From the NCBI GenBank assembly GCA_964019335.1, contig OZ025742.1:1-64000 (forward strand): DNA of 64,000 nucleotides, given 5' to 3'. The translations under genes and the position numbers were made by a program. Of the stretch, positions 1,141 through 39,371 are shown piece by piece. This DNA comes from Diplonema japonicum. Lineage: Eukaryota; Protista; Euglenozoa: Diplonemea. The first letter of the stretch is position 1. Each line of letters starts with the position of its first letter. Under the pieces are notes generated by a model that did not search any database, was not told the origin of the DNA, and saw nothing but the letters and a program-made list of their open reading frames with translations.

Positions 1141-4100
1141 TCGACCACACCGAGAAAGATGCGCAAAGGTTGCGGACCACATGATATGGACATCTTGGCG
1201 TGCGGTGACGTCGAGCAGAACCCGGGGCCAGCCGCGAAAGACGGATGGCTGAAGATAGTCTCGCTGAACGTGAGGTCCCTCAGAGCTAGGAAGGCCGAAA
1301 TCGAGAAGGCTATCGAAGAAACAGCGCCGGACATCCTGTGTCTCCAAGAGACACACCTAACATCAGACGATGCGATCCACGGCTGGTTCGAAGGGTACAG
1401 AGCTTTCCGAAGAGACAGGACGCGACCGAGAAGGAGGAATTTCCCCATAAAAGGGGGCGGCTTACTGACTCTCGTGAAAGAAGGCATCAACGCTAGCGGT
1501 GTCGAAAGGAAGGAGAAGAAAAATGACGTGACGGAAAGACTGGACGTCAAAATATACCCGCCAGGTCAAAAGGAGATCCTCCTGGTGAACATCTACCTTC
1601 CACCAACATCGCCGTCAGATCCGAGCGATGACAGACCGAGCATCGACACCTACTTCAACCCGAACACACTCCCGACAGGGGACAGAACCTTAATCATGGG
1701 GGATTTCAACGCCCACCACCCTCTGTGGGACGGGAGAAGAAAGAAAGAGGACCTCATAGGTGACAAAGTCGCAAAGTGGATGATCGAGAAAGGGATGCGA
1801 CCCTGGAATGACAAAGCCACACCGACACTATTGAACACAAGAGGTTCCTTATCATCACCGGACCTGGTGATAAGCGGGCCAGACATGGACTCTAGATCCT
1901 GGACAACCCTCGATTCATGGGGGTCTGACCACATACCCATGTCCATCCGGATAAGAACGAAATACGAAACCGGACCAACCATTAAGAAATTCAGCTTCAA
2001 AAAAGCTGACTGGGAGGGGTACAGAAATCATCTGGAGTACACCCTGAGGCACCTGCAGAGAACAGGAGACCCGGTCAGGCTAAACAAGCAGTTCACTGAA
2101 GCAGTCAAGGAGGCCGCCAGGCTCTTCATCCCAAGAGGGGGAGCGAGAGGCGGGAAAGCGTGGTGGACTGAAGAGCTGACGCAACTGGTTGGAAGAAGAA
2201 ACGCTCTGAAGAAGGAGATTATGTCGGACATCGGCATCCCATCGATAGAACAATGCGAGAGGCTTGGTGAAATCAGCAGGCAAGTGCAGAAACAGATCGA
2301 TGAAGGGAAGAAAAGAGCGTGGGCCGACTACATGAAGGAGCTGTCTCAGAAAAAGGACTTGGGACACGCTTTCAGGACGATAAAAACGCTCGATGGCAGG
2401 AAGGACAAAGATCCAGTAGCACCACTAATGGCAGGCGGCAAGCTACACACATCGGCGAAGCAAAAAGCAGACGTCCTTGTGGAGCACTACGCAAAGGCTT
2501 TTGCACCCCACCTTAACAAGGACACAAAGAAGATGCTGGACGGTGAAAACAGGAAGTCCAAAGTGATCAAGGACTTGAGGGACAGGGTCACTTGCCCAGG
2601 GATAAGCATGGAGGAACTGAAGCACGCGCTGAGGCAGTTGAAGAAGGGGAAATCCCCGGGCCCAGACGGTGTCTACAACGAGATGCTGAAACACCTGGGG
2701 GGGACGGCCATGGACACATTACTCCATCTGTTCAATATGTCATGGGAGAAGGGAGTGGTACCATCAGACTGGAGGTTCACGCACATAATCCCACTTTACA
2801 AAGGAAAGGGCAAGTCAAGAAGTGATCCGGCATCGTACAGACCGATATCGCTAACCTCCAACATTTCAAAGACAATGGAGAGGATAGTAAAGATAAGGGT
2901 CGACTACCACCAAGACGTGGGAGATGTGAAGAGGGTGCACAAAATGCAGTCAGGTTTCAGGAAAGGGCGCTCCACAGAAGAGAACGTCCTGCAAGTGACC
3001 ACGAAACTGAACCGCATCAGAGACGATGAGTTCTGCGGCGGACTTTTGCTCTTCGACCTGAAAGGAGCCTTCGACACAGTGTGGCACAAGGGTCTAAATG
3101 CGAAAATGAGGAGTAATGGCTACCCGCAAAGAATTACGGACTGGGTGGCCGCTTTCCTAGACCAGAGGATCGCTGCCGTCAAGGTGAGTGGCGAAACAGG
3201 GAAGCACGAACACATAACGGGTGGGGTTCCACAGGGAACCATCCTTGCCCCAACCCTCTTCTCGATCTACATGGACGACCTCTCAGAGACGTTCGAAAAG
3301 GAGGGCATTGATGCCGTGATGTACGCAGACGACATTGCGGTGGTGCTGCACGAAAAAGACCTGGACAGCTTGAATGGAAAACTGATGAAGATCCTGAGGG
3401 TTGTGGAGAGCTGGTGCTCGAGAAACTCGATGGTGATCTCCAAGGGAAAGACAGAGTTCCTTCCCGTTGCTGGCATCTCCTATCCGCAGAGAACACTGAA
3501 GGGGAAGATCAGAGCAACTTTCAAGACCGGCGAAGAACTCGAGGTGGTCGAAAAAACAAAGCTGCTCGGAGTCACCTTCGAGGAGGACATGCTTTTCTCC
3601 GAACACTCCAGAGACGTCTTGGAAAGAGGTGAAAGCAGGGTCAGGCTGCTGAGCTGCCTTGCGGGAACGAGATGGGGTTGCAAGAAGGTGGTGTTGAGGG
3701 CTCTATACCTCACATATGTGCAACCAGTCTTCAGATACTGCTTGGGCGTGTACGGGTCATTTCTCCCGAGCGGGAGGAACACGCCCCACGAAGGCATCAA
3801 GAAGCTTCAATACAGGGCAGCGGTGAAGATCACAGGCTGCATCGCGTCATCAGAGACATTCGCGACACTGAACGAAGCGGGGCTGTGGACCCTGGATGCG
3901 CTGATCGAACACGACAGCCTGTTGCTCTACGAGTCACTGATGAGAAAAGTGGACACCGCCGCATACCAGGCGACTCAGCCTCTGGAGGATCTGACCAGGT
4001 ACGAGAAGCTCCTACCAAGGAGGACTTGGTCTGACAAACAGAGAGAGGCATCGAAAGCCTACAAACTCCCAGAGAGGACGGGCACACCTCACTCGGGCGC

Positions 4101-5109
4101 CGTCTTCATGAGGAGACTCGCGGTTGCACCCTGGCAAAGATTCGAGGGGCAACTCGTGCTCTCCCCCTTCCTAGACACGCAGGTGAAAAGGACGGACCCA
4201 AAAGAGGTCAGGAAAGAGGCAACAACGAACACCCTGAACAGGTTATGCGAGAAACACGGCCGGGCATTCTGCATGGTGTTCACAGACGGGTCCGTAAAGG
4301 ATGGGAAAAACGGAGGCTCGGCCGCCATCCTGCTGCACAACGGGTCCGATGCTGCCTACGGGATCAGCGGTGGACTGTATTCGACATCCTACAAATGCGA
4401 ACTCAGGGCCCTGAGGCTAGGGATCCGACTGGCGACAAGACTCTCAGAGAGGAAGCTTGCAAGCCAAGGGATGGTTCTGATATGCACAGATTCGCAGTCG
4501 GTGATACGGAAGATGTGCCAGGGACACATGTCGGCAGCCTCCAAAGATGACTTCGAACTCTGGCAGGAGGTCGCGAGCTTGACAGGCAGAGGCCACAAGC
4601 TAATCGTTCAATACGTCCCGAGTCACTGCGGGTACAAGTGGAACGAGAAGGCGGACCAGAAGGCAAAAGAGGCGAGCGAAAGACTGGCCCACACCCGTGA
4701 GACAGACATTGAGGTGGTTAAAACTCTGGTGAGGAAGCATGTCATCAGAAGCCACCTCCGCCTATGGAAGGATACTGGCGTCACAAAGACGTACAGGGAG
4801 CAGTTTGCCGGAAGTTACGAGAAGTTCGAGGAGCTGGACAGAAAGAAAGAAGTGGCGATCATGAGGCTGAGGGTGGGGAAGAGCCCACTCACTTGCGGAT
4901 ACCTACTCATACCCCCAGTCGAGGAGGTCCCGTGCCATCTATGTTCGCAACCCCAGACTCTAAGCCACCTCCTACGGGAATGCCAAGACGGAAAGAGGAT
5001 CGACCAAAGGAGTCAGATCTTCGGTAGCTCCCTTCCTTCCCTCAAAGTCCTCCTGTCCACCGACGCCTGTAAGACCGCCCAGCTCTTGGAGCGGCAGGGA
5101 ACATTGTGA
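1126..5109 (+). CDS. E1 ORF2: 2A peptide + APE endonuclease + reverse transcriptase + RNase H + CCHC knuckle (intact; frame open from 703)
   Basis: DILACGDVEQNPGP; SLNV, LQETHL, GDFNAHH, SDH; PGPDG, YRPISL, GVPQG, YADD; FTDGS, TDSQS, SHCG..NEKAD; CHLC..HLLREC. Confidence 0.95.
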   Translation: MLKRPSTTPRKMRKGCGPHDMDILACGDVEQNPGPAAKDGWLKIVSLNVRSLRARKAEIEKAIEETAPDILCLQETHLTSDDAIHGWFEGYRAFRRDRTRPRRRNFPIKGGGLLTLVKEGINASGVERKEKKNDVTERLDVKIYPPGQKEILLVNIYLPPTSPSDPSDDRPSIDTYFNPNTLPTGDRTLIMGDFNAHHPLWDGRRKKEDLIGDKVAKWMIEKGMRPWNDKATPTLLNTRGSLSSPDLVISGPDMDSRSWTTLDSWGSDHIPMSIRIRTKYETGPTIKKFSFKKADWEGYRNHLEYTLRHLQRTGDPVRLNKQFTEAVKEAARLFIPRGGARGGKAWWTEELTQLVGRRNALKKEIMSDIGIPSIEQCERLGEISRQVQKQIDEGKKRAWADYMKELSQKKDLGHAFRTIKTLDGRKDKDPVAPLMAGGKLHTSAKQKADVLVEHYAKAFAPHLNKDTKKMLDGENRKSKVIKDLRDRVTCPGISMEELKHALRQLKKGKSPGPDGVYNEMLKHLGGTAMDTLLHLFNMSWEKGVVPSDWRFTHIIPLYKGKGKSRSDPASYRPISLTSNISKTMERIVKIRVDYHQDVGDVKRVHKMQSGFRKGRSTEENVLQVTTKLNRIRDDEFCGGLLLFDLKGAFDTVWHKGLNAKMRSNGYPQRITDWVAAFLDQRIAAVKVSGETGKHEHITGGVPQGTILAPTLFSIYMDDLSETFEKEGIDAVMYADDIAVVLHEKDLDSLNGKLMKILRVVESWCSRNSMVISKGKTEFLPVAGISYPQRTLKGKIRATFKTGEELEVVEKTKLLGVTFEEDMLFSEHSRDVLERGESRVRLLSCLAGTRWGCKKVVLRALYLTYVQPVFRYCLGVYGSFLPSGRNTPHEGIKKLQYRAAVKITGCIASSETFATLNEAGLWTLDALIEHDSLLLYESLMRKVDTAAYQATQPLEDLTRYEKLLPRRTWSDKQREASKAYKLPERTGTPHSGAVFMRRLAVAPWQRFEGQLVLSPFLDTQVKRTDPKEVRKEATTNTLNRLCEKHGRAFCMVFTDGSVKDGKNGGSAAILLHNGSDAAYGISGGLYSTSYKCELRALRLGIRLATRLSERKLASQGMVLICTDSQSVIRKMCQGHMSAASKDDFELWQEVASLTGRGHKLIVQYVPSHCGYKWNEKADQKAKEASERLAHTRETDIEVVKTLVRKHVIRSHLRLWKDTGVTKTYREQFAGSYEKFEELDRKKEVAIMRLRVGKSPLTCGYLLIPPVEEVPCHLCSQPQTLSHLLRECQDGKRIDQRSQIFGSSLPSLKVLLSTDACKTAQLLERQGTL
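1168..1230 (+). other. Canonical 2A (StopGo) motif GDVEQNPG/P
   Basis: Exact D(V/I)ExNPGP consensus directly before the APE domain. Confidence 0.9.
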
Positions 5110-5316
5110 AAAAACTTATAAATTATAATATGTTATACTCTCCAAACATTGAGGTCTGAAGTTGTTAAACGACTTCAGACAGCAATTGTTTCTAACTCAA
5201 TCTCTCGACTCTGGCTTCACTCCTATCCTTTCTTTTCACCTCCCTCCCCAGTGTCTTCCCTTATTTTCCATTACCAGGCCCCTGTCCCCCGCCCCCAGTG
5301 TTATTCAAATTTTTCA

Positions 5317-7963
5317 CGTAACGTAGAGAGACCGCAGAGTGTCCCTCTTGCTGCCCCAGGACGTGCCAGACAAGAGCTTCAGCACCCTCAGCCTTTTGCT
5401 GGCCCGCCGTAGGATGTCCTGTGCGTGTTCACCGAACGTGAGCCCAGAGTCCACCGTTACCCCAAGGTACCTCGCGTGTTCAGACAGAGGCAGGGGACGG
5501 GCCGCAACGTAGTCCACGTCGGGCCGTCGCACGGCTGCATGCATGTCCCGCACGCAGCGGATCCGCACACCACCCGCCTCCACAACCTGAAGGCCCGCCA
5601 GCTCCTGGTCCCCGGAGATCGTGCCATCGGCGTTCACCCCCAGGCCGAAGAGTGGGTTCTGGAAGGCACCTGGCTGAAGGGGGACTCGTGACGAAGTGAA
5701 GTAGACCCCGAGACGTTTCTGGGGGGGGACGCAGACTGCCTGCGTCTTGGACGTGCTCAGCAGCATGTCACGCTCCCTGCACCAGTCCTCAACCGCATCC
5801 ACCACTGCCTGCGCCTTCCGCTCCAGCCCAGCCACGTCCCCTTGTCCAGAGGAGATCACAACCGCCACGTCGTCGGCGTAGAGCACCGAGACGTCCGCCA
5901 GTCCCTCCAGTCTCCTGGCGAGTTCGTCGACGTAGATGGTGTACAGGATGGGACCCAAGACAGAGCCCTGGGGGACACCCCGTCGCACCTTCGTCGTCGA
6001 CCCCCTCGACCGTCCAATCGTGACCGCAGCAGTACGGCCGCATAGAAAGGACCGCGTCCACTCCACGAAGGGTTCGGGGAGACCCTTCCCTCGCATCTTG
6101 TCCAGCAGGGCACCATGGGGCACCAGGTCGAAGGCAGAAGAGAAGTCGAACAGCAGAGCGGCCGAGAGACGTCGATCGTCTTTGTTCCTCGACATGCACT
6201 CAGTGAGGGTTGCCACCTGCTCCTCCGTGGAGCGGCCGCGTCTGAAACCAGCCTGGCTGTCGTGGAGTCCCTCGACTCCCGTCCCGTCCGCGTCAAGAAG
6301 AAACGTGAGCCTCTCCTCGATCATCCTCTCCAGCAGCTTGCAGAGGCAGCTGGTCAGGCAGATCGGCCGGTAGGAAGCCAAGAGAGTCGCATCTTTTCCA
6401 GGTTTCGGTACCGGGACGATCACTCCCTTCTTCCAGGCGCCGGGAACAACACCCATCAGCCAGGAGCGATTGAGGAGTAGAAGGAGGACAGGGAGTCCGA
6501 GTTCAGGTGTAGGAGCATCTCCGAGAAGATTCCGTCTTCCCCGGCCGCGCTGCGCGTCTTCATCCTTCTCAGGCCGCGGGTGAGGTCGTCCACGGTGAAC
6601 GCTTGACACCCGAGTCTGCTTGCAGAAGGAGCGGCGTCCTTCGAGTTCCCGTCACCACGCCTGCCGTAGAGCTTAGCGAAGTGCGCCCCCAGCCGGTCGG
6701 CCTTCGCCTTGTCCGACACAAATCTTCCCTCGAGTACAGGAAGGTGTGTCTTTCGGTGCCTGCCGTCCAGCTTCTTCACCGCTCTGAACGCAGCCCCGAG
6801 GTCCTTGCTCCGGCTGAGGTCGGCCGCCATCCTTCCCCATGCCTCACGCTTCGTCTCGTCAAGAAGTCGGTTGACTTCTTTCACCTTCGCCCTGTACTCC
6901 TCCACCACGTCCGCCTCTTGAAGCAGGAGTTCGCGCAGGGTGTTCCGCTCTTCGAAGGCGTCCTCGAGCTCAGCAGTCCACCAGGGGGTCGGGCCACGTC
7001 GCATCCCACAGAGGGGAATGTGGTCGTTCGCCGCAGTCAAAAGGGCTTGTGTAAACCCCTTCGTGACAGAGTCAATCGGAGCCGCCGTGTCAACACCAGC
7101 AAGCAGGCGGGCAACAGCAGCAGTGTAGTCGTCCCACCTGGCTTTTTTGAAATTCCAGGTGGGGAAGGGGCGCTCCGAACGGTAGACGTCCTCAAGAGGC
7201 AGGTGAAAGGATACGGGACTATGATCGGAGCCCCACGTGCCCAGCGTCTTCGGCTCAAGCTTCGCGCAGCGCCCCACAACCAGGTCCAGAACGTGTCGTG
7301 ACGAGTCCCTCGTCGGTTCGTTGCGGTCGTTGTAGACGGAGTACCCGTGGGTGTCCAGCCAGTCCCTGACCACGTTCCCCCTCTCGTTCGGCGTCGTCAC
7401 CGTGGCGTCCCAGGAGCTGTGGTGAGCCAGTCACCCGCTATGACTGTGTTCTTCCCCATGGGAAGGCTGCCAGGCCGCAGGTACTCAGGGTCCCTCGTGC
7501 CTCTGCCCGCGCTTACCGGTGTAAGGTAAACGTTGGAGAGAGTGATCGGCTCACGCTTCTCGCAGGAGATCCTCACATCCAGTCTCTCAGTGACACAGTC
7601 CCCAGCCGGGAGTACGTGCGGAACCTCCTCCGAGGCAAGATCGTCGCGGACATACGTGACAATACCACCACCCCTCGTCGCAGTGCCGTCAGTCACCGGT
7701 GTCAACCGATCCCTCCTGTATGACCTGTACCCAGGCAGGTGTGGCGTGTCGTGCCCTTCCCTCAGGTGCGTCTCCTGTATCATGATGATGTCCAGCGACA
7801 AGAAGTCAGCATGGCGAGATACGACGGTCCATTTCGCAACGAGGCCGTTGCAGTTCCACGAGACAACCTTGAGACCCTTAGGCGACGGGGGCGGCAGCTT
7901 CTTGGGTGGGCCAGGGTTTGTTTCGACCAGCCCAAGCAGCCCCAGCAGGTCCCTGACGGACAT
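5317..7963 (-). pseudogene. E2 ORF2 (2A-like, APE, RT) with frameshifts at ~7428 and ~6495, truncated before RNase H
   Basis: ORFs 7397-7963, 6456-7400 and 5314-6609 align consecutively to E3 ORF2; GDFNAHH motif broken by a small deletion. Confidence 0.9.
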
Positions 7964-8104
7964 CCTCCCGAGTAGGGTGGGGATCAGTGCAGAAAAGTCG
8001 GTGAAGAAACAGAGAGGTAGGAGTCTCCTGGGGAGGATGCGAGGGAGACTAGGAGAGGGAGCATGGTCGTAGATCTGCTGCTCCCCCTGTTCTGCGGGGC
8101 CCCT
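7907..8104 (-). other. In-frame post-UGA linker + 2A-like motif (LLGLVETNPG/P) of E2
   Basis: 47 sense codons after the ORF1 TGA run in frame into MSVRDLLGLLGLVETNPGP. Confidence 0.8.
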
Positions 8105-10966
8105 TCAATTGGATGGACCCATGGAGGCAGAGCGCCCCTTGACCCCATTGGTGAAGAGATCTTTGGTCTCCGCGAACGACCTGGCCCGCCCCCTCGTACC
8201 CAGGTTCGTCACCGCAGCCTCAGAGGTCGTAGCGAGAGGAGGAGCCCCCTTCTTCCCCTTCCCCTTCCCTTTCCAGACACTGTCGTGTGTCGTCGTCGCC
8301 CCCGGTGTAGGGTCCCGCGGCACTGCCGTTCCCGTCGTCAGCGTGGCCGCCTGCGGCAGGAGGAGGCGGAGCGTCGTCCGCAGATCGGAGATCATCTCCT
8401 GCTGAGAGTCGATCGTCCTCTGCAGCCCGACGATCGACTCCTTCAGCGTGGCGACGAGCTCAGTGAGAGCGGCGACCTCAGGCGACCCGGAAGGGACCCC
8501 CTCCTTGTTTCCCCCAGACACGTTGCGGGGCGGTGTAGGGGACGTCACAGTGTCGAGCTGGGGGGGAGCCACCGAGCTCGGTATGGACGCCCACGGGCTG
8601 GTGGGAGGAAGCCCAGTTGCTTTCACCGCAGGGTCAGTCCCCGAGGGTGTCGACGCCGATACAGGTGCCGGGTCAGGTACAGGTGTAGGCGCAGGTGCAG
8701 GTACATGAGAAGATGTGGGTGCCGGGGTCGAGGACGTTGCAAGCGCAGGTGCAGATGCAGGTGTCGTCCTGTTGATGAGAGGGGGCGGCTTGACGGTCGG
8801 GTGGTCGTCCGCATCACGGAGGCAGACAAGGCGCCCCCCAAGGAGCCACGTCCTGGACTTCGGGGGCGGGCCGTCGACGACGATGAAGAACACGAGTTGC
8901 CTCGTGCCCTGGAACATCGTCTGCGTGCGTCGCAGGACGGAGGATGGTTTCCAGCCGATGTGGTCCATCATTTCATCGAAGGCCGCCCTGGTGATGGACG
9001 GCGGGGCCCCGGTGAGCAAAAACTTGCGCTTCGTACGCAGTTTTGCGAGGGTTTCCCGGAGCCGCTGTTCCGTCTCCGGTAGGCACCGCACAGTCCATCC
9101 CTTACGGTGCGCCACCCCGAGAGACAACCCACCCAGCGTCCCCGCAATCCGAAAGGCATCCGCCCTCCCTTCCGCCACGATGGGTACATAAGCGTACCCC
9201 CCGCGTCTCTCCGTCGTCCGGATCATGCACCCGTCCCCGGACCGGCGCAGGACGGCGTGGACGTGTGCTGCTTGCAGGCGCAGTCCCACCTCGTGGGTCC
9301 AGTGCCTCGCCCGCGGTTCCTCCTCACCGAACTTCCTTGGGCGGAAGACCGCACGATCCTCCACCACCGCGCCCTGAGCCTTGGCGAGCTCCAGGACCCT
9401 GGCCTTCGCCTCCTTCAGGCTGTCTGCACTGACACAGACGTAGACGACCTCCGATCCGCTGTTGAAGGTGGAAGGCGGGGTGTAGGTGGGGGGGTCCAGC
9501 CCGAACGTGGAGACGTGGACCCTCCTGTTCACTGCGCGCGACCCAGAGACCATGACAATCTCGCTGGGGGTGGTGACACCGGGGACCTCTGTCATAAGGA
9601 CAAAGGTGATGGATGCCGTAGGTAACGCGGAGCACACGACCCCCATTCCGGAGGGATCGTCGAGCGCAATGACAGCGCGGGATGTTTCCGTCGGGGGGGA
9701 CACGTTGGTGTAGATCGGGGCGTCCCATGTGTCTGGCACCAGGTCCCATCGCGGGGTTGTGGAAGGGGCAGGGGCAGGGTCGTCCTCCATCTCCTCAGGG
9801 CCAGAGCTGGTGTCAGAGTCTGAGCTGAGGAGGAGCGTGCCTTGGTCTGTTGACGCGTTGGCGGAAGCGTTCGCGACTGCTTCGTCCTCGACCTTCTGGG
9901 CATCTGCCTTCTTGGCGGCCGCCAACCTCAAAGCTTCCTCCTTTTTGGCAGCGGCTGCGGCGGCTTCCTTTTCGGCGGCGGCGGTGGCTGCGACCTTCTT
10001 CTTCTCCTCGGCGGCGGCGGCTGCGGCTGCGGTCTCCTTCTCGGCGGCGGCGGCGGCGGCTGCAGCTTTCTTCCTGGCGGCGTCGGCTGCGGCCTTCCTC
10101 TCGGCGGCGGCGGCGGCGGCTGCTGCTTTCTTCTCGGCGGCGGCCTTCTCCTCGGCGGCGGCGGCGGCTGCTGCTTTCTTCTCGGCGGCGGCGGCGGCTG
10201 CGGCTTTCTTCTTCTCGGCTGCAGCGGCTGCGGCTGTAGCCTTCTTCTCCTCGGCTGCTTTCATCTCGGCCGCAGCACGCGCAGCCTCCTTCTCCTCTGC
10301 CGCAAGTCGTGCAGTAGACCGCTCGCGCAGAGCCTTCTCCTCAGCCTCGACTGCTCTGCGAGCAGCCTCCACACCAGCCACGCGTGCAGCTTCCGTCTCG
10401 GCTGCCATTTTGACAACCGCAGCATCAGCCACCTCCTGCGCAGCCTTCATCTTAGCTGCTATTTCTGCAGCTACCACGTCGGCCGACTCGCGTGCAGCTT
10501 CCAAATCAGCAGCGATTCCCGCGAGTTCGACGTCGGCCGCAGTGCGTGCGGCTTCGAGGGGGTGTGTGGCGTCAGCTTTGTGTGCGGCTTCGGCGGCAGC
10601 GTCAGCGCGCGCGGCTCTGGCGGCCTTCCTCCTAGCTTTCTTGCTGGAGGTCGGGGTGGCGACGCTGGCGTCAGGCGAAACCGGCCTTTTGACGGAGCCG
10701 GTCGGGGTGGAGGCGACAGGTGTCGCTGGGCCGGCTGTAGCGGCGGCGGCGTCGGGCGTGAGGAGGTCAATCACGGTGACCACCCCCGTCATCTTCTCCC
10801 GGTGCTCCGGCGTCAGGAGCTGCCCCAGCTCCCCGGCTGCTCCCGCGCTGCGGAGCATCCTCTCCACCCGCCGCTCCTCCCTGGCCTTGGACTGCGCCAG
10901 CTGCGTGCTGGCCCCGTTCCCTTCCGGCTTTGCCTTCTCCTTGTGCTTGTCTTTCTTCTTGCCCAT
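8105..10966 (-). CDS. E2 ORF1 (Ala/Lys/Glu-rich coiled coil, central RRM-like region, coiled coil, basic tail)
   Basis: 953-aa ORF with ATG after an A-run; AAAAAEKK repeats; central domain homologous to E3 and E4 ORF1. Confidence 0.85.
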   Translation of the reverse strand: MGKKKDKHKEKAKPEGNGASTQLAQSKAREERRVERMLRSAGAAGELGQLLTPEHREKMTGVVTVIDLLTPDAAAATAGPATPVASTPTGSVKRPVSPDASVATPTSSKKARRKAARAARADAAAEAAHKADATHPLEAARTAADVELAGIAADLEAARESADVVAAEIAAKMKAAQEVADAAVVKMAAETEAARVAGVEAARRAVEAEEKALRERSTARLAAEEKEAARAAAEMKAAEEKKATAAAAAAEKKKAAAAAAAEKKAAAAAAAEEKAAAEKKAAAAAAAAERKAAADAARKKAAAAAAAAEKETAAAAAAAEEKKKVAATAAAEKEAAAAAAKKEEALRLAAAKKADAQKVEDEAVANASANASTDQGTLLLSSDSDTSSGPEEMEDDPAPAPSTTPRWDLVPDTWDAPIYTNVSPPTETSRAVIALDDPSGMGVVCSALPTASITFVLMTEVPGVTTPSEIVMVSGSRAVNRRVHVSTFGLDPPTYTPPSTFNSGSEVVYVCVSADSLKEAKARVLELAKAQGAVVEDRAVFRPRKFGEEEPRARHWTHEVGLRLQAAHVHAVLRRSGDGCMIRTTERRGGYAYVPIVAEGRADAFRIAGTLGGLSLGVAHRKGWTVRCLPETEQRLRETLAKLRTKRKFLLTGAPPSITRAAFDEMMDHIGWKPSSVLRRTQTMFQGTRQLVFFIVVDGPPPKSRTWLLGGRLVCLRDADDHPTVKPPPLINRTTPASAPALATSSTPAPTSSHVPAPAPTPVPDPAPVSASTPSGTDPAVKATGLPPTSPWASIPSSVAPPQLDTVTSPTPPRNVSGGNKEGVPSGSPEVAALTELVATLKESIVGLQRTIDSQQEMISDLRTTLRLLLPQAATLTTGTAVPRDPTPGATTTHDSVWKGKGKGKKGAPPLATTSEAAVTNLGTRGRARSFAETKDLFTNGVKGRSASMGPSN

Positions 10967-11731
10967 TTTTCTTTTCTTTTCTTTTACAATTTTTTTTTTT
11001 TTTTTTTTTCAAAATACCAATAGGTGCCACCATGGGGGAGCAACACCTGGGAAGGGGAAAGGTGAAGGGAAGCATGGAAATATTACAGGGAGGGCGAAGA
11101 CCAGTTCTTCTGCAATCAGATGGAGCTGTGGACTCCGCCAACCCGTGCACCTGTTTGGAACAGCCGAAGAGGGCTGAATTACTTTAATTCCAAGCCGCGT
11201 AGACCTACGTGACTCGGACGGGGACCTTGACCCCAGTTCGTCGTTTTTCTCAACTGGGACCTCTGGTGACCGGAACTGGCCCCGGTCGCCCCCTCGAGAG
11301 GGATTTGCTCCATTGAGCGAAACATGAAAGGGTGAGAGTAAAATCTCTCAAAATCAAAAGGGGAAGCGAGTGTGCGTGTGCGCATGGGGATGATAGGGGA
11401 AGCATTTGCTCTCCCCGCTGCACTCCGGCAGGCGGGGGGAGGGGATGGCCGTACCACACTCGTTCGTGCGAAGATGAGAGGACTCATCTTGGCAACTTCA
11501 GAGTAGGCCGGGTCATCCGTTTTTGACTACAATGTCAGGGCACACGATAACAAGAGGATGTTAATTTTAAAAAATTTTTAAAATTTAAAAAGTTTAAAGG
11601 GGGACGGGCATACTGGTAAGAGAAGGCCAGACGCCGGATGATGATAAAGAAAAGGATGAGAGGGAGTGGAAGAGAGGGGAAGGGAACGTAAGCACTAAAA
11701 GAATTGAAATGTTGATCTCACCCTACTCACT

Positions 11732-14700
11732 TCAGCGCAACACGGGGGCCGCAGGGCCGGCGTCAAGGGAGACAGCCGGCGGGATGAACGAAGGGGCAGC
11801 GGTACCTGCCGTTGCCGCAGACGGCGACGTGAAGACCCCGGATCTGGCCCAGTCAAGCAAGCCAGAGTCGGCGATGAGGGTGAATACCTGCGTCACGCGT
11901 TTTGACAGGCACTCCACCAGCGAGGGGCGTCCATTGGGAGCGTCGAGCGAACCCCGTCCAACCACAGCGCACCCCCCAACAACGTGCTCCCTGGACATCC
12001 GAGCTCCACACGCTGGACAGCTGAGCTCAGCCTTCTTCCTGTTCGGTCCAGCCGCCTGCAGGAAGCCGAAGAAGAGAGCGGAGTGCCCTACCCTCAGCCG
12101 CGAGATGACCGTCTCCGCTAGCCTGGGGAGGGACTGGGGGAAGCACGCCGCTCGGAGCCCCGTGGCCCTCGCGTACCTCGGGGCCACCTCCCCGACAATG
12201 ACCGCAGACCTCTGCTGAATCTGGCGACGGACCAGGGCCCTGACCGACCTGTAGTCGAGAGAGGGGCGAGTCAGCTCGCGCTTCGTGCCCTCCCCGGCCA
12301 GCCTGTCTGCCGCCTCGTTGCCAGGAACCCCGCAGTGGGACGGCACAAACTGGAGAATTACTGGTGCACCTTGTGCACGTGCCGCGGCCACCAGCAGTTC
12401 CCAGGTCTCGTGGTCGAGCCTCTCCCTCTGCCGCGAAGGACCTGCCCTCAGCTGATCAAGGAGAGAGAGCGAGTCGGTACAGATCGACAGCCGGCTGTCT
12501 GCCAACGTGGGGTGCTCGCTCCGGAGCGCGGCCACCATGTCCAGAGCCACCTTGACAGCCAGACCCTCCGCCCGAAAGGAAGAGCAGAAATTGCTGACGC
12601 CGAAGCTCTCGGACACGGGTTCGTGGGGGCGGGGGAGCTGCAAGTAGACCCCGGCGCCGCCCCTCCACCTCTGGCGGTCCCGTACGACAGAACCATCCGT
12701 ATAGGCATGGATACCCGGTGGAAGGGCAGCCAGAGCCTCCACGGCCGCCTTCCGCTTATCCACGTCCGGCGACGAACGCGTGACCCTGCCGGGAAGGGCA
12801 GTTCTGAACTCCACCAGGAACGCGTGCCACGGTGCTACTTTGGGCGAGGCAGTCAGTAGCTCGAAGGTGTCGTACTTCCTGAAGCCTTCCTGCGTCGTCC
12901 ACCCCTGCAGTCCGCAGCGTCGTAGCGCAAGGATACCCGCACGCAGCCACCCATTGCCCATACCGGTCATCCGCTTCTGCTCAAGGACCTCGCGGTGAAC
13001 CGGGGAGGTCCTCCAGCAGAACGACTTCGCCGTCAACACCGCCGCAGCTCCCTCAGCCATCTGTCGGAGGGGTAGCAGACCTGCCTCAGCAACAACCTTC
13101 GCCGTGCCCGAGCCGTGCCAACAACCCGAGATCAGCACCGCCGCTCTCTGGTGGAGCCCAACAAGCTCCTCCACCCTGCTGTCCCTGAGCCTGGCAAAGT
13201 AAACACCCATGCAGTACCGGAGTAGCGGGAGAACGTACGTGAGGTACAGAGATCGGAGCGTGGCCTTCTTGCACCCCCAGGTCGTGCCCGACAGGAGCCT
13301 TAGTACCCTCAGCCTCTTGTCAGCGCGCCTCAGGACATCCCCCGCATGCTCGTCAAACGTGAGCCCAGAGTCTACAGTGACCCCAAGATACTTCGCCGAC
13401 CCACACAGAGGCAAGGGGCGAGCCGCCATGTAACCAATGTCGGACCTCCGGATGGCGGCGGGAATGTCGAAGGACCGTTTGCCACCCGCCTCCACGACCC
13501 GAAAGCCAGACAGCTCACGGACGCCAGACAAGGTCCCACAGGCCCCAACCCCAAGATTAAGGACAGGGTCCTGGAAGGCCCCCGGGCAAAGCGGGACACG
13601 CGACGAAGAGAAGTAGACATTAAGCCGCTTCTGATAGGGAACGCACACTGCCTGCGACTTGCTGGAGCTCAGCAGCATGCCCCGTCTCCCACACCAGCCC
13701 TCAACCGCGTCCATCACAGCCTGGGCCCCTCGCTCAAGACCAGCCAGGTCGCCCTGCCCGGCTGAGACCACCACCGCAACATCGTCGGCATAAAGAACCG
13801 ACAGGTCCGCCATCCCAACCAGCAACCTGGCTAGCTCGTCGACGTAGATGGTGTAAAGGACGGGTCCCAGCACAGACCCTTGGGGCACCCCTCTCCTCAC
13901 CTTCGTCGTCGACCCTCGCGAACGACCCACCGTGACCGCCGCCGTACGACCGCAGAGGAAGGAGCGCGTCCATTCGACGAAGGGCTCAGGGATCCCTTTC
14001 CTCCGCATCATGCCCAAGAGAGCTTCGTGCTGAACCAGGTCAAACGCAGATGAGAAGTCAAACAGCAGGGCAGCCGACAGACGCCGACTGTCTTTGTTCC
14101 TCGACAGGCACCCGGTCAGGGACGCCACCTGCTCCTCCGTGGAGCGGCCCCTCCTGAAGCCAGCCTGGCTGTCGTGGAGACTCTCAACGCCCGACGCGCT
14201 AGAGTCTAGGAGAAAGGTAAGCCTCTCCTCTATCATCCTCTCAAGCAGCTTACAAAGACAGCTAGTGAGACATATGGGACGGTACGATGCAAGCAACGTG
14301 GCGTCCTTCCCTGCCTTCGCCACTGGAACAATCACCCCCTTCTTCCAGGCACCCGGCACGATCCCCGCCTGCCATGAGCGATTGAGGAGCAGAAGTAGAA
14401 CCCCGAGCGAGGGTTGGTCGAGGTGGAGAAGCATCTCCGCGAAGATGCCATCATCACCCGCTGCACTGCGTGTCTTCATCCTTCCCAGACCGCGGGTGAG
14501 ATCATACACCGTAAAGGCGTGGCACCCAAGCACGTTCGTCGAAGGAGCTACGTCCACCGCGTCCCCATCACCACCCTGGCCGTAGAGCTTGCCGAAGTGA
14601 GCCCCCAGGCGGTCGGCTTTCGCCTTGTCCGTCACGAACCTCCCCTCGAGAATGGGAAGGTGCGGTCTGCGGTGTCTGCCGTCCAGCTTCTTCACCGCCC

Positions 14701-15898
14701 TAAACGCAGACCCGAGGTCCTTGCTCCGACTGAGGTCAGCCGCCATCTCACCCCAGGCCGCGCGCTTCGACTCGGTCATGAGTTGGTTTACCTCCTTGAC
14801 CTTCGCCTTGTAGACCGCCGCCACGCTGTCGTCCTCAGTCTCAGCCGACTTGAGGAAGCGATCCCGCAGGGCGTTCCGTTCTTCGAAGGCGTCTTCGAGT
14901 TCGGCCGTCCACCAGGGGGTCGGGCCTCGTCGCACTCCGCAAAGCGGAATGTGGTCGTCAGCTGCATGCAGAAGAGCCTCTGTAACCTCCTTCGTGAAGG
15001 AGTCAATGTGGGCCTTCGTGTCGATCTTGGTCAGAAGGGCAGCGGCGGCCGCGGTGAAGTCGTCCCACCTGGCCTTTTTGAAGTTCCAGGTAGGGCAGGG
15101 TCGCTCCGAGCAGTAGGCGTCCTCAAGCGGCAGGCGGAAGGAAACCGGGCTGTGATCAGAGCCCCACGTCCCCAACGTCCTCGGCTCCAGTTCCGCACAA
15201 CGTCCCACCACCAGGTCCAGAACGCATGGCGGTGAGTCCCGCGTCGGCTCGTCACGGTTGTTGTAGACCGTGTAGCCGTGGGTGTCAAGCCAGTCCCTGA
15301 CCACGTTCCCCCTTTCGTTGGGCGTTGTCACCTTGGCATCCCAAGAGCTGTGGTGTGCGTTGAAGTCGCCAGCAACGATCGTGTTCTTCCCCACAGGTAG
15401 GCTGCCCGGCCGTAGGTACTCGGGGTCCCTTGTCCCTCTGCTTATACTCACAGGCGTGAGGTACACGTTGGAGAGGGTGACCGGGACGCGCTTCACACAG
15501 GAGATCCTCACGTCTAATCGCTCAGTGACACTGTCACCTTCAGGGAGTACGAAAGGAGCTTCCTCCGAGGCAAGGCAGTCACGGACATACGTGATGACAC
15601 CACCGCCTCTCGTCGCAGAGCCGTCCGTCACCGGTGTTGTGCGGTCCCTCCTGTAGGACGTGTATCCAGGCAGGTATGGTGTCTCATGCCCCTCCCTAAG
15701 GTGTGTCTCCTGGATCATAATGATATCCAGCGTCAGTAGGACAGCGTGGTAGGACACGGTTGACCACTTGGCGGCAAGACCGTTGCAGTTCCAGGACAGG
15801 ACCCTGAGTCCCTTCGGCTTCGGGGGTGGGAGCTTCTTAGGTGGACCGGGGTTCGTCTCAACCAGCCCAAGCAGCCCCAGCAGGTCCCTGGCCGACAT
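11732..15898 (-). CDS. E3 ORF2: 2A-like + APE + RT + RNase H + CCHC (frame open upstream to 16039)
   Basis: LVETNPGP; SWNCNG, QETHL, GDFNAHH, SDH; YRPICL, GVPQG, YADD; YTDGS, TDSLS, SHCG..GNEAAD; CPAC..HVVGGC. Confidence 0.95.
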   Translation of the reverse strand: MSARDLLGLLGLVETNPGPPKKLPPPKPKGLRVLSWNCNGLAAKWSTVSYHAVLLTLDIIMIQETHLREGHETPYLPGYTSYRRDRTTPVTDGSATRGGGVITYVRDCLASEEAPFVLPEGDSVTERLDVRISCVKRVPVTLSNVYLTPVSISRGTRDPEYLRPGSLPVGKNTIVAGDFNAHHSSWDAKVTTPNERGNVVRDWLDTHGYTVYNNRDEPTRDSPPCVLDLVVGRCAELEPRTLGTWGSDHSPVSFRLPLEDAYCSERPCPTWNFKKARWDDFTAAAAALLTKIDTKAHIDSFTKEVTEALLHAADDHIPLCGVRRGPTPWWTAELEDAFEERNALRDRFLKSAETEDDSVAAVYKAKVKEVNQLMTESKRAAWGEMAADLSRSKDLGSAFRAVKKLDGRHRRPHLPILEGRFVTDKAKADRLGAHFGKLYGQGGDGDAVDVAPSTNVLGCHAFTVYDLTRGLGRMKTRSAAGDDGIFAEMLLHLDQPSLGVLLLLLNRSWQAGIVPGAWKKGVIVPVAKAGKDATLLASYRPICLTSCLCKLLERMIEERLTFLLDSSASGVESLHDSQAGFRRGRSTEEQVASLTGCLSRNKDSRRLSAALLFDFSSAFDLVQHEALLGMMRRKGIPEPFVEWTRSFLCGRTAAVTVGRSRGSTTKVRRGVPQGSVLGPVLYTIYVDELARLLVGMADLSVLYADDVAVVVSAGQGDLAGLERGAQAVMDAVEGWCGRRGMLLSSSKSQAVCVPYQKRLNVYFSSSRVPLCPGAFQDPVLNLGVGACGTLSGVRELSGFRVVEAGGKRSFDIPAAIRRSDIGYMAARPLPLCGSAKYLGVTVDSGLTFDEHAGDVLRRADKRLRVLRLLSGTTWGCKKATLRSLYLTYVLPLLRYCMGVYFARLRDSRVEELVGLHQRAAVLISGCWHGSGTAKVVAEAGLLPLRQMAEGAAAVLTAKSFCWRTSPVHREVLEQKRMTGMGNGWLRAGILALRRCGLQGWTTQEGFRKYDTFELLTASPKVAPWHAFLVEFRTALPGRVTRSSPDVDKRKAAVEALAALPPGIHAYTDGSVVRDRQRWRGGAGVYLQLPRPHEPVSESFGVSNFCSSFRAEGLAVKVALDMVAALRSEHPTLADSRLSICTDSLSLLDQLRAGPSRQRERLDHETWELLVAAARAQGAPVILQFVPSHCGVPGNEAADRLAGEGTKRELTRPSLDYRSVRALVRRQIQQRSAVIVGEVAPRYARATGLRAACFPQSLPRLAETVISRLRVGHSALFFGFLQAAGPNRKKAELSCPACGARMSREHVVGGCAVVGRGSLDAPNGRPSLVECLSKRVTQVFTLIADSGLLDWARSGVFTSPSAATAGTAAPSFIPPAVSLDAGPAAPVLR

Positions 15899-16039
15899 CC
15901 GTTCAAGTAAGGAAGGGATCAAGGAAGGGAGGACGTCGTACAAGTGATGTGGAAGGTGTCTCCTCGGCTGTATGCGCGGGAGACCAGGAGAGGGGGCGTG
16001 GTCGTCGATCTGACGCCCCCCCTGCTCAGCGGGACCCCT

Positions 16040-17170
16040 TCAATTGGCAGGGGCGGGGGCCGGGCCCACAGAGGCTGCCCGTCCACGGCCGGCCCCGTTG
16101 GGGGAAGCAGAGTCGCCAGCCAGCGACTGGGCGCGTCCCCTTCCGCCCCCTTGCTCCGTCGATGTCGGGTAGGGGCCTGGCGTGCTTACGCCCTGCGCCT
16201 GGTGCCCCTTCGTCCCTGCCTTGGACCCAGCCTTGCCGCCCTTGCCCTTCCCAGCAACTGCCGTCCGCCCAGCTCCGTCTGCAGATGACGCCGGCGCGCC
16301 AAGTGACGCTGCCATCTTCTCCTGGAGGTCGCGGACCGTCGCCTGCAGACCGTCGATGGTCGCCTGCATCGACTGGATCAGCGCGAGGAGCGCCGGGACC
16401 TCAGGTTCCGGTGCGGGATTCTTCTTCTGGGAGTCACGGGGAGGTGTCGTGGTCGGGGAAGCCGCAGAGGAGACCGGAGTCACAGTGCCAAGTGGCGGAG
16501 GGGCAACAGAGCTCGGTGGAGATGACCACGGATTGGTGCTCGGCAGCCCTGTGGACTGCACCGTGGGGCCAGGGGCCGGCGTCGGCGTCTGGGCCGTGGT
16601 TGCCGCAACCGGCGTCCGAGCCGCGGGTGGAGCCTTCTTGTTGGTGCGGGGCGGGAGCGTGACGCTCGGGTGGTCCTCCGCGTCGTGCAGTCGAACGAGA
16701 CGAGAGCCGAAGAGCCATGTCCTGGCCTTGGGGGGCGGGGCGTCGGCGACGATGAAGAACACGAGTTGCCTCGTGCCCTGGAACGCCGTGTCAGAGCGTC
16801 GGATGATGGACGACGGCTTCCAACCGATGTGGTCCATCATCCCGTCGAAGGCTGCCCTGGTAACAGACAGCGGGGCTCCGGTGAGCAGGTACCGTCGCTT
16901 TGTCCTCTGCTTGGCGAGGGCCTCCCTCAGACGCTGCTCCGTCTCCGGCAGGCACCTCACGGTCCAACCCTTGCGATGGGCCACCCCCAGGGACAACCCG
17001 CCCAGTGCCTTCGCCAGCTGGAAGGCCTCCGCCCTCCCCTCCGCTACGATGGGCACGTAGGTGTACCCCCCGCGCCGCTCGGTCGTCCTGACCATGCAGC
17101 CGTCGCCCGAGGCCCGGAGTACCGCATGGACGGATGCCGCTGGGAGCCGCAGGCCCACCTCGTGGCTCCA
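16040..17170 (-). CDS. E3 ORF1, 3' part (5'-truncated)
   Basis: Aligns to the C-terminal part of E2 ORF1 from WTHEVGLRL onward; ends AAT-TGA as in E2. Confidence 0.85.
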   Translation of the reverse strand, partial: WSHEVGLRLPAASVHAVLRASGDGCMVRTTERRGGYTYVPIVAEGRAEAFQLAKALGGLSLGVAHRKGWTVRCLPETEQRLREALAKQRTKRRYLLTGAPLSVTRAAFDGMMDHIGWKPSSIIRRSDTAFQGTRQLVFFIVADAPPPKARTWLFGSRLVRLHDAEDHPSVTLPPRTNKKAPPAARTPVAATTAQTPTPAPGPTVQSTGLPSTNPWSSPPSSVAPPPLGTVTPVSSAASPTTTPPRDSQKKNPAPEPEVPALLALIQSMQATIDGLQATVRDLQEKMAASLGAPASSADGAGRTAVAGKGKGGKAGSKAGTKGHQAQGVSTPGPYPTSTEQGGGRGRAQSLAGDSASPNGAGRGRAASVGPAPAPAN

Positions 17171-20100
17171 ACCAGCAGCGGTCAGCACGCAGGAAATTAT
17201 GGAGAACTTGGTCGCAGCAGGCGGCGATACAACGGGCAATAAAGCTAAGAAACCCACAGCTGCCACCACGGCCCTCCATCTAGAACTGTCTTCCCTCCTG
17301 AAGGCTGTCCAACGCGCGCTGCTGGACAAGGATCTGGAGGGCAGGTCCAAGACCCACGGTCCCGACGGTATCCGACTAAAGCGGTACTGGATCGTCGACT
17401 CGGCCGAGAACGTAGCTGCGGATATCAAGCAGCAGTACACAACTTACAAAAGCCTGTCCCCTGCCACGTACGACTTCCGGGACATGTACACCAACCTCGA
17501 CCAAGGGCGTCTGAAAGAGGGGGTTCGTAAAGCAGTCCAAGAAGCGTTCGACTTTACCGGCAAGAACCTCACCCGTGGCAAGGACGGGAGCTCCTTCACA
17601 GATGCCGACGAGGACGATGTCTACACCCCGGAACGGATCCATAAGCTCCTGGACCTCGTCGTTGACACCTATGTTGTGCAGGGTGGCCGCGCCGTTCGTC
17701 AAGTAAAGGGTATCCCCATGGGTGGGAACGCCTCCCCCGACCTGGCGAACCTGTTCTGCTACGCCGTGGAGGCCGCATACATCGACAAGCTCCTCGCCGA
17801 AGAGGACTGGGAGACCTTGAAACGCTACTGCAACGCGTGTCGCTACATCGACGACTTCCTGTTGTGGAGCACTGCGCCACCCCCGGAGGAGCTTTATGGC
17901 ATGGCTTATGTAAAGACCTCTTCAGACCCATGCGACGTCCCCTTTATCGGGATTCGCATCCGGATAGAGCGCCACGAACAAGCTAAGCACAACTATATTA
18001 GACTTAGCATTAACGATAAGGCGCAGAACTGGCGCTTCCGGCCTACGCGGTTCACCCACGGGCACACCGCGGCGCCCACCACCCAGGGACCAGGCATCTT
18101 CAAGGGCATGGTCATCCGTGCCTGCGCCCTGACCAACAACATCGCGGACCTCAAACGGGAGATCGCTTCAGTGATCTACCTGCTCCTAGATCGCGGTCAC
18201 GACAAGGGCGGCCTGCGGAAAGCGTACAACGCCTTCCTTATCGAACGCGTGGATCGACGCTTCGCCATGGAGAAAAGCAACCTGCTGGCCTTCTTCACGC
18301 AAGTCCTCCACCGATACGACGCCAAAGCCCCGGTAGATTCTTGGTTGCCGGAAAAAACGTACATAGGCCCCAAGAAACCCCGTGCGCTTCCCACGGACGA
18401 CTCCTCGGACGACTCCTCAGCTGACTCCTCAGTCGTCTCCTCAGTCGCCTTCTCGGGGGGCCCCTCAGACGAGCCCTCGGACAGTTCCTCGGACAGCTCT
18501 TCAGGTCTTGTCGAACCGTCACAACCCCGAGCAGCCTCCGTGGTCTCACCATCTGGTGTCACGGACCAGGTTTTTTCGCCCCCCATCAACCTGCACACCA
18601 ACAGCGGGGAAGGTCGCCTGGGCCTGGAATGCGGCTGGGCCGTCATAAACTGGTTGGCGGACTATGCTGGTGTGGACCGCATCCCCTTCTCTACAATGCA
18701 GGAGATCCAGGAGATGTACCACGGCTTCTCACGACTCATCTCCCCTTCCAGCACTGATGAAGCGCCCGATCCTCTTGGCAACTTTTCCCGCTCGACCTTG
18801 TCACGTGCTTGCCTCATGGTCGTTGGTGCAAACTTGGAGGTCTTCCGTGCGGGCATGAAAGAAAGCCCCTGCTTGATCGTTGGTCCCTTGAAACGAAGTC
18901 TCAGCGGCCACTGGTTCATCGCTCTCAGGAAGAAGGGAAGGTACATGGTCAAAGACACCGACGTACGGCTAAGGCTCCAGAGCTTCAAACACATCTGCGC
19001 GACATACTCCGAACACAACATCCTCTGCATCCCAGACGATGTGTGGGCCAGGACAACCCCAGGCAGGAAACACAACACACGTGTTCTAGACCCTGAGGCT
19101 GAGTTTCGCCAGTTTGAGCCGGTCATCACCCCGGCGGCACCCCAGGTAAGCGACTCGAGCGCGCGAAAGACTGAGACCGCTCTCAACACCCCGGAAGATC
19201 GCACCCTCCTAACTTATGTCACCCTAGCTGCAGCTATAGCTACATATGCCGCACGCACCCGACGGCTCGACACAGGAGTCGCCGCATCAGGTGTGGACGC
19301 ACACACCGCTCACTTCGGGCGGCCCGTCGCCACCGCCATCGTAGCCCTAGCTGCCGCCGTGGCCGCGCGAGCCGTGCACACCGGATGCTCTGTCACCACC
19401 ACGTCTACGGCAAGCCAGACTAACGTGGTCGGAACTGTCCCGCTCTTCCTGAAGGTCTCGAGTCTGCACAAGTCTACACCACAGACAGCAGTCGCAACCT
19501 GTCAGACGGACCGTGTCACAGCACCTGTACTGTTCTCGATATCATCGACGCTCCAGACGGATCCTCCCAGCAGTAGACTGCCCCCGATGGACGCCGGACT
19601 GGGGTCGCCCTCGGCCGCGGCGGTCAGACTTACGAAGTCTGTCGAAATTCCGACGCCCCGCGCGACCCTGTCGAGGCGGCCGGTTACTGAGCCTCGGTTG
19701 ACACCATGCCTTCCACCGCCAACGGACGTGTCATCCACCCAGCTCGCGGCCTGCACTCAGTCCACCCGTCGGGACACCGGACACGGGAGTGACACACCGA
19801 TGCCGTCGTCTACCATGGGACACGCGACACTCCAACCAGTGGTCGGCTCCCAGATTGTGACAACGTCGGCTGTGGAGTCATCGCTCGCCCGAGCCGTGAC
19901 AACGCCCGTTCTGGCAGACGCCCCCCTCGGCGCCCGCCAGGTACAGCTCACTCCTTGCATCCAGTCCGTCCATGAGAACATCGGACTCGGGATGGATACG
20001 CCGATGGCTCCCGCCATGGGACACGCGACGCTTCAACCGGTGGTCAACGCCCAGAGAGACACGACGCTGACCCTGGAGCCGCCCGTGGCCCGAGCCGAGG

Positions 20101-39275: not shown

Positions 39276-39371
39276 TCCATCTTTTCTTTTTGCAGTTTTC
39301 TTTCTTCTTGCTCCTTTTTTTTACTGACATGCAACCTTATCCATCCCTCACACTCAGGTACCTCCACAACA

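Follow-up and report, generated by a model that had tools for sequence, protein, structure and literature searches.

How do ribosomes reach the second open reading frame (ORF) of a retrotransposon whose first ends in a stop codon? Translation of ORF2 in two-ORF retrotransposons that lack long terminal repeats (LTRs), the non-LTR elements, is described as an open question (PMC3894237; PMC5009743), and a 64,000-nt stretch of Diplonema japonicum DNA (contig OZ025742.1, positions 1 to 64,000; the window) holds two elements that bear on it. This eukaryotic DNA abounds in non-LTR retrotransposons; four elements of the APE type are relevant here, E2 and E3 on the minus strand and E1 and E5 on the plus strand (positions and strands refer to the whole window). 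In E2 and E3 the UGA that ends ORF1 is followed by a short linker that stays open in the same frame up to a 2A-like peptide and ORF2, and the way in which this linker has evolved points to its translation.

Judging by their sequences, E2 and E3 are two subfamilies of one long interspersed nuclear element (LINE) of the APE-RT-RNase H type, well separated in divergence (synonymous distance, dS, about 1). The family is transcribed, and intact transcript proteins exist for both ORFs: P0001 matches the segments of E2 ORF2 at 93-99.7% identity, and P0085 matches E2 ORF1 at 98.5% identity and stops at its final residue (by their EukProt source labels, P0001 and P0085 are D. japonicum transcript proteins of one Trinity gene). 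Neither genomic copy is complete: compared with P0001, E2 is truncated at the 3′ end and its frame is broken twice, and E3 lacks the 5′ part of ORF1 (Table 1).

In both copies ORF1 ends AAT-TGA-AGG-GG, and after 47 open codons the frame runs through MS(V/A)RDLLGLLGLVETNPGP into the APE domain. The linkers, 141 nt each, align without an indel at 70.9% nucleotide identity. This layout had been described by a first-pass annotation, made from the DNA letters alone, and it proved exact, as did its counts for the linker (identity at 30 of 47 residues, 15 codons changed synonymously, no indel). The same annotation called the ORF1 tails just upstream very divergent. Ungapped identity there is indeed low (10-11 of 30 residues upstream of the stop), but the contrast with the linker was overstated, since the divergence consists mainly of indels; in the last three aligned 50-codon blocks of ORF1 before the stop the ratio of non-synonymous to synonymous substitution rates (dN/dS) is 0.45-0.55. 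The first in-frame AUG lies 141 nt past the stop at the same place in both copies and is the only AUG they share. In-frame near-start codons common to both linkers occur at codons 11, 23, 40 and 41 only, codon 1 being AGG.

The linker bears the mark of coding selection. Its dN/dS (NG86) was 0.195 in the ORF frame and 1.2-1.4 in the other two sense frames, as compared with 0.12 in APE; codons 1-30 gave 0.146. For the two copies, then, the ratio that the first-pass annotation had proposed to examine is not near 1, and neither linker contains a stop or a frameshift. When the 41 linker substitutions were placed at random, 22-23 residues stayed identical, versus 30 observed (P 0.0007-0.002). Codons 1-30 carried the signal (24 identical residues out of 30 against 18.5 under the null, P 0.00045); it was not significant in codons 31-47 (6 of 17, null 5.0, P 0.37). 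Because RNA structure could mimic coding selection, the test was also made with the 32 paired bases removed, leaving 58 bases of codons 1-30. Fourteen of these differ, nine synonymously and ten at third positions, where the null gives 3.6-4.6 synonymous changes (P 0.0001 in one direction and 0.0017 in the other). The three changes in codons 1-6, ahead of the hairpin, are all synonymous (P 0.018). An antisense ORF was considered as a source of the third-position bias and rejected, because stops interrupt, in E2 and E3 alike, the antisense frame with which third positions are shared. In contigs of four sequencing runs on E3 there was no variant at the UGA (three of the four runs cover the site), the single common linker variant (16013) was synonymous, and the one indel, of 6 nt, occurred in a copy that is cut short 9 nt upstream of the stop; such copies, being nearly identical, carry little weight. 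Since E2 and E3 are well separated, we infer that the linker changes arose after both subfamilies already carried the UGA. It is very likely that the linker is decoded in frame from the stop onward.

The linker RNA can also fold. With the U of UGA as nucleotide 1, a hairpin (SL1) occupies nt 20-54 in both linkers, with pairing probabilities of 0.66-0.99. Ten pairs are shared, and the four stem changes amount to two A-U/G-C swaps, non-synonymous on the 5′ side. Shuffling of codon columns gave a shared helix of at least 9 bp with two compensatory changes in 1 of 2000 trials, and a 534-nt control from APE contained no shared helix longer than 8 bp. The first-pass annotation had described the linker without mentioning this hairpin, which we find in both copies. 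No Rfam match to a ribozyme or to an IRES (internal ribosome entry site) was obtained in the linkers at the gathering score, and sub-threshold matches were at chance level; a descriptor for ribozymes like that of hepatitis delta virus (HDV), strict and run without a positive control, matched neither linker nor the E2 5′ region. One HDV-like descriptor match in E3 sits in ORF1, at a frequency also seen in shuffles. Separately, the longest exact match in the 2.8-kb alignment of E2 and E3 is 30 nt (15861-15890 and 7926-7955) and covers codons for RDLLGLLGLV. It hints at RNA-level constraint or gene conversion; two exact runs of 26 nt are found elsewhere in ORF2.

The linker leads into a 2A-like peptide with the core GLVETNPGP in E2, E3 and P0001. 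The first-pass annotation placed the 2A correctly before APE but overlooked that its core is not canonical: Leu replaces Asp, and the class A pattern D(V/I)ExNPGP is not matched. The 19-codon segment has nonetheless changed little at the amino acid level between E2 and E3 (dN/dS 0.053), and a leucine-rich stretch, RDLLGLLG, lies upstream of the core as in class A 2A; leucine enrichment marks active 2A-like peptides, of which, the same preprint reports, only two-fifths possess a standard core, and many 2A-like peptides reduce the amount of protein rather than skip (PMC13405545). Residues further upstream raise 2A activity (PMC12338488), which fits translation that begins upstream of the linker Met. 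If the UGA is read through, StopGo at NPG/P could well go either way. It is the weak link of the cassette, as the core lacks an Asp that P2A and F2A can hardly do without, and should it fail, readthrough would yield an ORF1p-ORF2p fusion. In P0002, from Diplonema ambulator, residues 1-125 contain two 2A-like motifs, GDVHKNPGP and GDVHRHPGP, in which His replaces or adjoins the usual residues; between them the APE start is partly duplicated.

A distant element, E5 (27814-34450), allows a comparison. It belongs to a separate LINE clade, with APE and RT and no RNase H match. Its ORF1 likewise ends in UGA, here in a UGA-C context, and is followed by an open in-frame stretch that leads to a class-B-like DGIEPNPGP lacking Trp. 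A TCA repeat lies within this linker, and the frame breaks near 33161-33216. The UGA is likely the true end of ORF1, because P0088, a 42%-identical relative of E5 ORF1, ends three residues later after the same Cys motif, and the junction would support AUG-free entry into ORF2. Three relatives of E5 ORF2 were compared. In P0123 the start is a Met located 15 residues ahead of the 2A. P0122 and P0124 (residues 1-586) have about 570 open codons upstream of a 2A-like GIHPNPGP, with the ORF1 Cys motif encodable only in the +1 frame (Cys-spacing test, 6 of 2000 shuffles); when the P0122 N-terminus was compared by profile with E5 ORF1 for homology in a shifted frame, the result stayed at background level. 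For these two, a −1 frameshift or reinitiation near the stop is a candidate route. The junction type therefore seems to vary within the E5 clade, since the Met start of P0123 and the implied −1 overlap of P0122 and P0124 both differ from E5. Just upstream of E5, at 27609-27655, there are a T-run and a 14-base stretch, the latter followed 12 bases later by its own reverse complement, so that a hairpin can form. We take the 14-base stretch to resemble the 3′ end of the diplonemid spliced leader, and the site may derive from retrotransposition of a trans-spliced 5′ end, or be a fragment of a spliced-leader gene.

To account for the E2/E3 junction we propose that a small share of ribosomes would read through the ORF1 UGA, by near-cognate decoding, into the linker and ORF2, assisted by SL1. 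The leaky UGA would keep ORF2p low relative to ORF1p, and StopGo at NPG/P would then release ORF1p extended by 66 residues and a separate ORF2p with PPKKLPPP at its N-terminus. As a route, readthrough is the simplest, given that nothing start-like lies in frame near the stop, that there is no stop-start overlap like that of SART1, and that 3′ RNA structures are common at readthrough sites (PMC3542737). The ORF2 AUG, moreover, has 2-3 A in the preceding 12 bases, versus 8-12 in four of four host genes and in E2 ORF1, and in E2 an out-of-frame AUG at nt 44 lies ahead of it. There was no stop-free ORF1-ORF2 fusion (about 2380 residues) among 67 protein matches of 763-2429 residues (the 7993 best candidates were scored); together with the identical end of P0085, this gives no sign that the ORF1 stop is edited or constitutively spliced out. 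We consider near-cognate readthrough the best explanation and hold it with roughly even confidence. A role of SL1 in it is held less firmly, because the hairpin begins 16 nt past the stop. The complete two-step scheme, hairpin-assisted UGA readthrough that sets a low level of ORF2p plus an active Asp-less 2A that frees it, is a tentative proposal for a diplonemid LINE cassette, one that we think more apt to fail in some part than to hold throughout.

A number of observations count against this proposal. Only two independent linkers could be compared. The stop context is UGA-A (UGA-AGG) rather than the leaky UGA-C or CAR-YYA, and UGA ends 8 of 15 ORFs checked, including 3 of 8 host ORFs, in which all three UGAs are followed by A; the identity of the stop and the A at +4 thus carry no weight for readthrough. 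Known readthrough stimulators begin about 8 nt past the stop, versus 16 in E2 and E3 (PMC3542737). The codon-column shuffle for SL1 was post hoc, having been designed after the hairpin was noticed; a shuffle of covarying pair counts was not significant (132 of 500), and with two rows could not have been; and single-sequence folding z-scores for the whole linker were just −0.09 and −1.5. For the 2A, saturation mutagenesis found no D12 substitution that kept P2A or F2A at 0.6 activity, and 139 of 1969 natural peptides with a single deviation (class X) were highly active, some of these with other residues at the D12 position (bioRxiv 10.64898/2026.09.24.754024). The AUG 18 codons before NPG/P is conserved, P0002 and P0123 likewise start at a Met just before the 2A, and conserved AG dinucleotides stand at nt 79 and 82 behind pyrimidine-rich sequence. 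E5, finally, is a single copy with a later frame break, its junction contains no hairpin (z +0.83), and the AUG of its own ORF1 is not A-rich either, which weakens the argument from start context; in P0122 and P0124 ORF2 appears to overlap ORF1 in the −1 frame, so that an in-frame stop would not be general in that clade.

Coding selection from codon 1 is equally predicted if ribosomes terminate and then restart in frame, independently of AUG, at or near the stop, with the hairpin retaining an unrecycled ribosome and the 2A-like peptide trimming the leader. Because the two predict the same sequence pattern, the claim of the first-pass annotation stood as to coding from the first codons past the UGA, and readthrough, its choice, shares this support with restart. 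SART1 depends on a structure that lies beyond its overlapping stop and start, and initiation on L1 ORF2 is described as atypical and independent of the AUG (PMC5972666; PMC5009743). Single-ORF relatives, too, often have long open leaders without Met before their 2A (101-173 codons in L001, L012 and L064, two of them running off the contig end), which suggests non-AUG entry in single-ORF Ingi-like elements and lets it look ancestral. Yet E2 and E3 lack a stop-start overlap, as the AUU and UUG sharing bases with the stop lie outside the ORF2 frame, the ribozyme descriptor and Rfam IRES searches of the linker gave nothing, and only continued elongation would fix frame 0; we judge a restart unlikely. 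Alternatively, ORF2 may have the linker AUG as its start, whether reached by scanning and reinitiation after ORF1 or carried on an mRNA of its own that receives a spliced leader at the AG of nt 79 or 82, the linker being conserved for RNA reasons. The AUG is co-located in both copies with no other AUG between nt 82 and 145 in either, the tract ahead of nt 79 is 60-85% pyrimidine, trans-splicing occurs throughout Euglenozoa (PMC10161547), and EukProt labels P0001 complete from this Met, in line with the starts of P0002 and P0123. This would leave unexplained the synonymous bias at unpaired positions of codons 1-30, would place just 18 residues before the skip site although upstream residues raise 2A activity (PMC12338488), and sits poorly with the upstream AUG of E2 and with E5, which has no in-frame AUG at all. 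We regard it as rather improbable.

Two further routes seem much more remote. A minor cis-splice could drop the stop by joining an ORF1 donor to a CAG/G that both copies share (linker nt 154-156), keeping the frame of the 2A-like peptide; this site lies behind a pyrimidine-rich tract in both copies and opens the 30-nt exact match, and Diplonema possesses spliceosomal introns (PMC10161547). However, contigs of the four runs, none recorded as RNA, show no joints at 15600-16400, the protein matches, whose length range includes the fusion, hold no stop-free one, the selection on codons 1-30 would be unexplained, and the 26-nt runs show that long exact matches also occur elsewhere in ORF2. Such splicing is highly unlikely. 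As improbable is a redefined UGA (selenocysteine or a reassigned codon), or a pattern that is chance or the relic of two dead copies, as might be argued from there being just two, of which E2 is broken and E3 truncated at its 5′ end. UGA is a working stop that ends the three host ORFs as well as E1 and E3 ORF2, which rules out codon reassignment; no selenocysteine insertion sequence (SECIS) was found in the window at the Rfam gathering score; and a relic is at odds with a transcribed family with intact ORF1 and ORF2 proteins and with substitutions that postdate the shared UGA.

Where might the arrangement have come from? In a quick RT tree of 76 out of 78 rows (P0062 and P0123 were dropped, having no RT match), E1, P0002, E3 and P0001 formed one clade (Shimodaira-Hasegawa-like approximate likelihood-ratio test, SH-aLRT, 99) inside a 21-row group (91) that holds 2A-bearing single-ORF loci, the tree being without a named Ingi reference; E5 lay far from this clade. 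The E2/E3 ORF1 core matched the profile of E5-family ORF1 (probability 94.7, E 6e-8), while its single-sequence fold was unusable (predicted local distance difference test, pLDDT, 35) and a PDB search uninformative. A likely history is that ORF1 was captured in frame upstream of an ancestral Ingi-type leader-2A-ORF2 module, in which case the 2A would be inherited and the leaky stop an addition. That one design, ORF1-UGA-open linker-2A, is used by two ORF2 lineages that are unrelated (E2/E3 and E5) and have an ORF1 family in common, and may travel as a module, is a doubtful suggestion when taken jointly with the two-step cassette. A metagenome search gave 80 loci and a viral search one; a 2A-like motif was present in 15 of these 81. 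The succession ORF1, stop, short linker and 2A was not seen among them, 14 of the 16 sites having less than 800 nt upstream, too short to show an ORF1; in L033 the upstream ORFs lie in other frames. Searches of viral and prokaryote contigs for DNA relatives of E2 ORF1, of the GLVETNPGP pattern and of E5 ORF2 gave nothing usable. In L010 (1-9934) two complete single-ORF 2A elements stand in tandem and in one frame, separated by a TAG and a Gln-coding repeat tail, which shows that a stop, an open leader and a 2A can arise through insertion alone. E1 has an open leader of about 110 codons (880-1240) from a GAC repeat to its 2A, with the first Met 36 codons before the 2A; self-complementary GGCCGGCC stretches in it suggest a 5′ structure, in which the ribozyme descriptor found no match.

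Table 1. Coordinates of the junction features and of the elements that carry them (the slash marks the predicted skip site).
Feature	Coordinates	Strand	Remarks
E2 ORF1 stop, AAT-TGA-AGG-GG	8105..8107	minus	
E3 ORF1 stop, AAT-TGA-AGG-GG	16040..16042	minus	no variant listed in the 3 sequencing runs covering the site
E2 open linker, 47 codons, in frame with ORF1 and ORF2	7964..8104	minus	codons 1-30 under coding selection
E3 open linker, 47 codons	15899..16039	minus	
E2 AUG and 2A-like peptide MSVRDLLGLLGLVETNPG/P, Leu replacing canonical Asp	7907..7963	minus	dN/dS 0.053 versus E3
E3 AUG and 2A-like peptide MSARDLLGLLGLVETNPG/P	15842..15898	minus	
E2 hairpin SL1, 10 bp	8054..8088	minus	begins 16 nt past the stop
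E3 hairpin SL1, 10-11 bp	15989..16023	minus	two A-U to G-C compensatory pairs versus E2
E2 hairpin SL2, 6 bp	8023..8049	minus	invariant pairs; weak support, lost in 240-nt fold of E2
E3 hairpin SL2	15958..15984	minus	
E2 ORF1, 953 codons: Ala/Lys-rich region, conserved core, Pro-rich tail; UGA end	8105..10966	minus	P0085 match; core homologous to E5-family ORF1
E2 ORF2 (APE, RT)	5316..7906	minus	frame breaks near 7427 and 6435-6495; 3′ truncated at 5316; the family's P0001 is intact
E3 ORF1 remnant	16040..17173	minus	5′ truncated where it meets an RT-bearing ORF of the opposite strand
E3 ORF2, intact past the 2A-like site (APE, RT, RNase H)	11732..15841	minus	Pfam matches
E1, single-ORF sister element, canonical GDVEQNPGP, APE-RT-RNase H	703..5109	plus	likely ancestral layout
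E5 ORF1 of a distant LINE clade; weak OTU-like N-terminus, Cys-rich C-terminus	27814..30096	plus	ends AAG-TGA-CAT
E5 open in-frame stretch, 61 codons without in-frame AUG	30097..30282	plus	ends DGIEPNPG/P before APE-RT

The rest of the window contains other ORFs. The long plus-strand ORF at 17061-21224, head-to-head with the truncated 5′ end of E3, has a weak partial RT match and resembles a different retroelement; its long C-terminal part matches no known family. Two host genes (23446-26415 and 39264-44165) encode Cys-rich repeat proteins with a C-terminal transmembrane-like segment. The latter contains a near-perfect 1128-nt unit four times, and a partial copy of the former lies at 38099-38895. 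The region 46000-64000 holds intron-poor host genes for an ABC-2 transporter, a long protein with an NTPase-like motif, a WD-like protein, a dihydrouridine synthase and a GDSL lipase, several of them with an A-run immediately ahead of the start codon.

Among known systems, the closest in ORF2 are the L1Tc/Ingi elements, likewise euglenozoan, which have an APE-RT-RNase H ORF with a 2A-like peptide directly before APE (for L1Tc, Heras 2006 as cited in Odon 2013, PMC3708506); the RT of E2/E3 groups with 2A-bearing single-ORF elements and with E1. Unlike Ingi, a single ORF, E2/E3 have an in-frame ORF1 of 953 codons, a stop and the non-canonical GLVETNPGP, and for the Ingi Pr77 5′ signature with its HDV-like ribozyme E2 gave no match to Rfam or to the descriptor, which was strict and had no positive control. 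Ingi-clade elements are said to lack ORF1, and the 2A has been argued to replace it as a brake on ORF2 (PMC3708506; PMC3894237). E2 and E3 contradict this published pattern of Ingi-type 2A elements without ORF1, with the 2A as its substitute. An ORF1 and a 2A ahead of the ORF2 domains are found together in three CR1 elements, CR1-26_BF, CR1-53_BF and CR1-1_LG, which have an ORF1 and a 2A in ORF2 (Odon 2013, PMC3708506), and in Cordylochernes, with a fused ORF1p-2A-ORF2p (PMC13405545). They differ in that an in-frame stop, a coding linker and readthrough are not described in the main-text descriptions compared.

As for the stop itself, the LTR element Tca2 of Candida uses UGA readthrough. Gammaretroviruses (gag-pol; UAG and a pseudoknot) and alphaviruses and coltiviruses (type II; UGA-C and a stem-loop) resemble E2/E3 in having a stop between structural and polymerase ORFs and a 3′ structure (PMC3542737), whereas E2/E3 have UGA-A, a hairpin at 16 rather than about 8 nt and no protease, so that separation would fall to StopGo. 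SART1, with its UAAUG coupling, and mammalian L1, with a 63-nt spacer and unconventional reinitiation, are, like E2/E3, two-ORF non-LTR RNAs that need little ORF2p; the downstream structure of SART1 may be compared with SL1, and the short L1 spacer before its AUG with the linker (PMC5972666; PMC5009743). E2/E3 differ in lacking a stop-start overlap, and their spacer, which in L1-type reinitiation is non-coding, is open, free of indels and under amino-acid selection, and leads to a 2A-like peptide. Cardioviruses also set the polymerase level by two recoding events close together (PMC5009743); these are viruses, and their order is the opposite, StopGo followed by a −1 frameshift, not readthrough. 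In the literature covered, outside which lie most subscription papers and supplements, no readthrough, alone or with a 2A, was found between ORF1 and ORF2 of a non-LTR element, in agreement with the first-pass annotation, to which the combination was unfamiliar. E2 and E3 thus offer a 200-nt junction whose evolutionary signature points to elongation across a stop, document an apparent ORF1 swap between distant LINE clades, and provide, in a conserved natural Asp-less 2A-like peptide, a case for probing the limits of StopGo in a euglenozoan ribosome. All of the parts are known from other systems; what appears to be new is that a LINE is predicted to combine them, and that an Ingi-like element has an ORF1.

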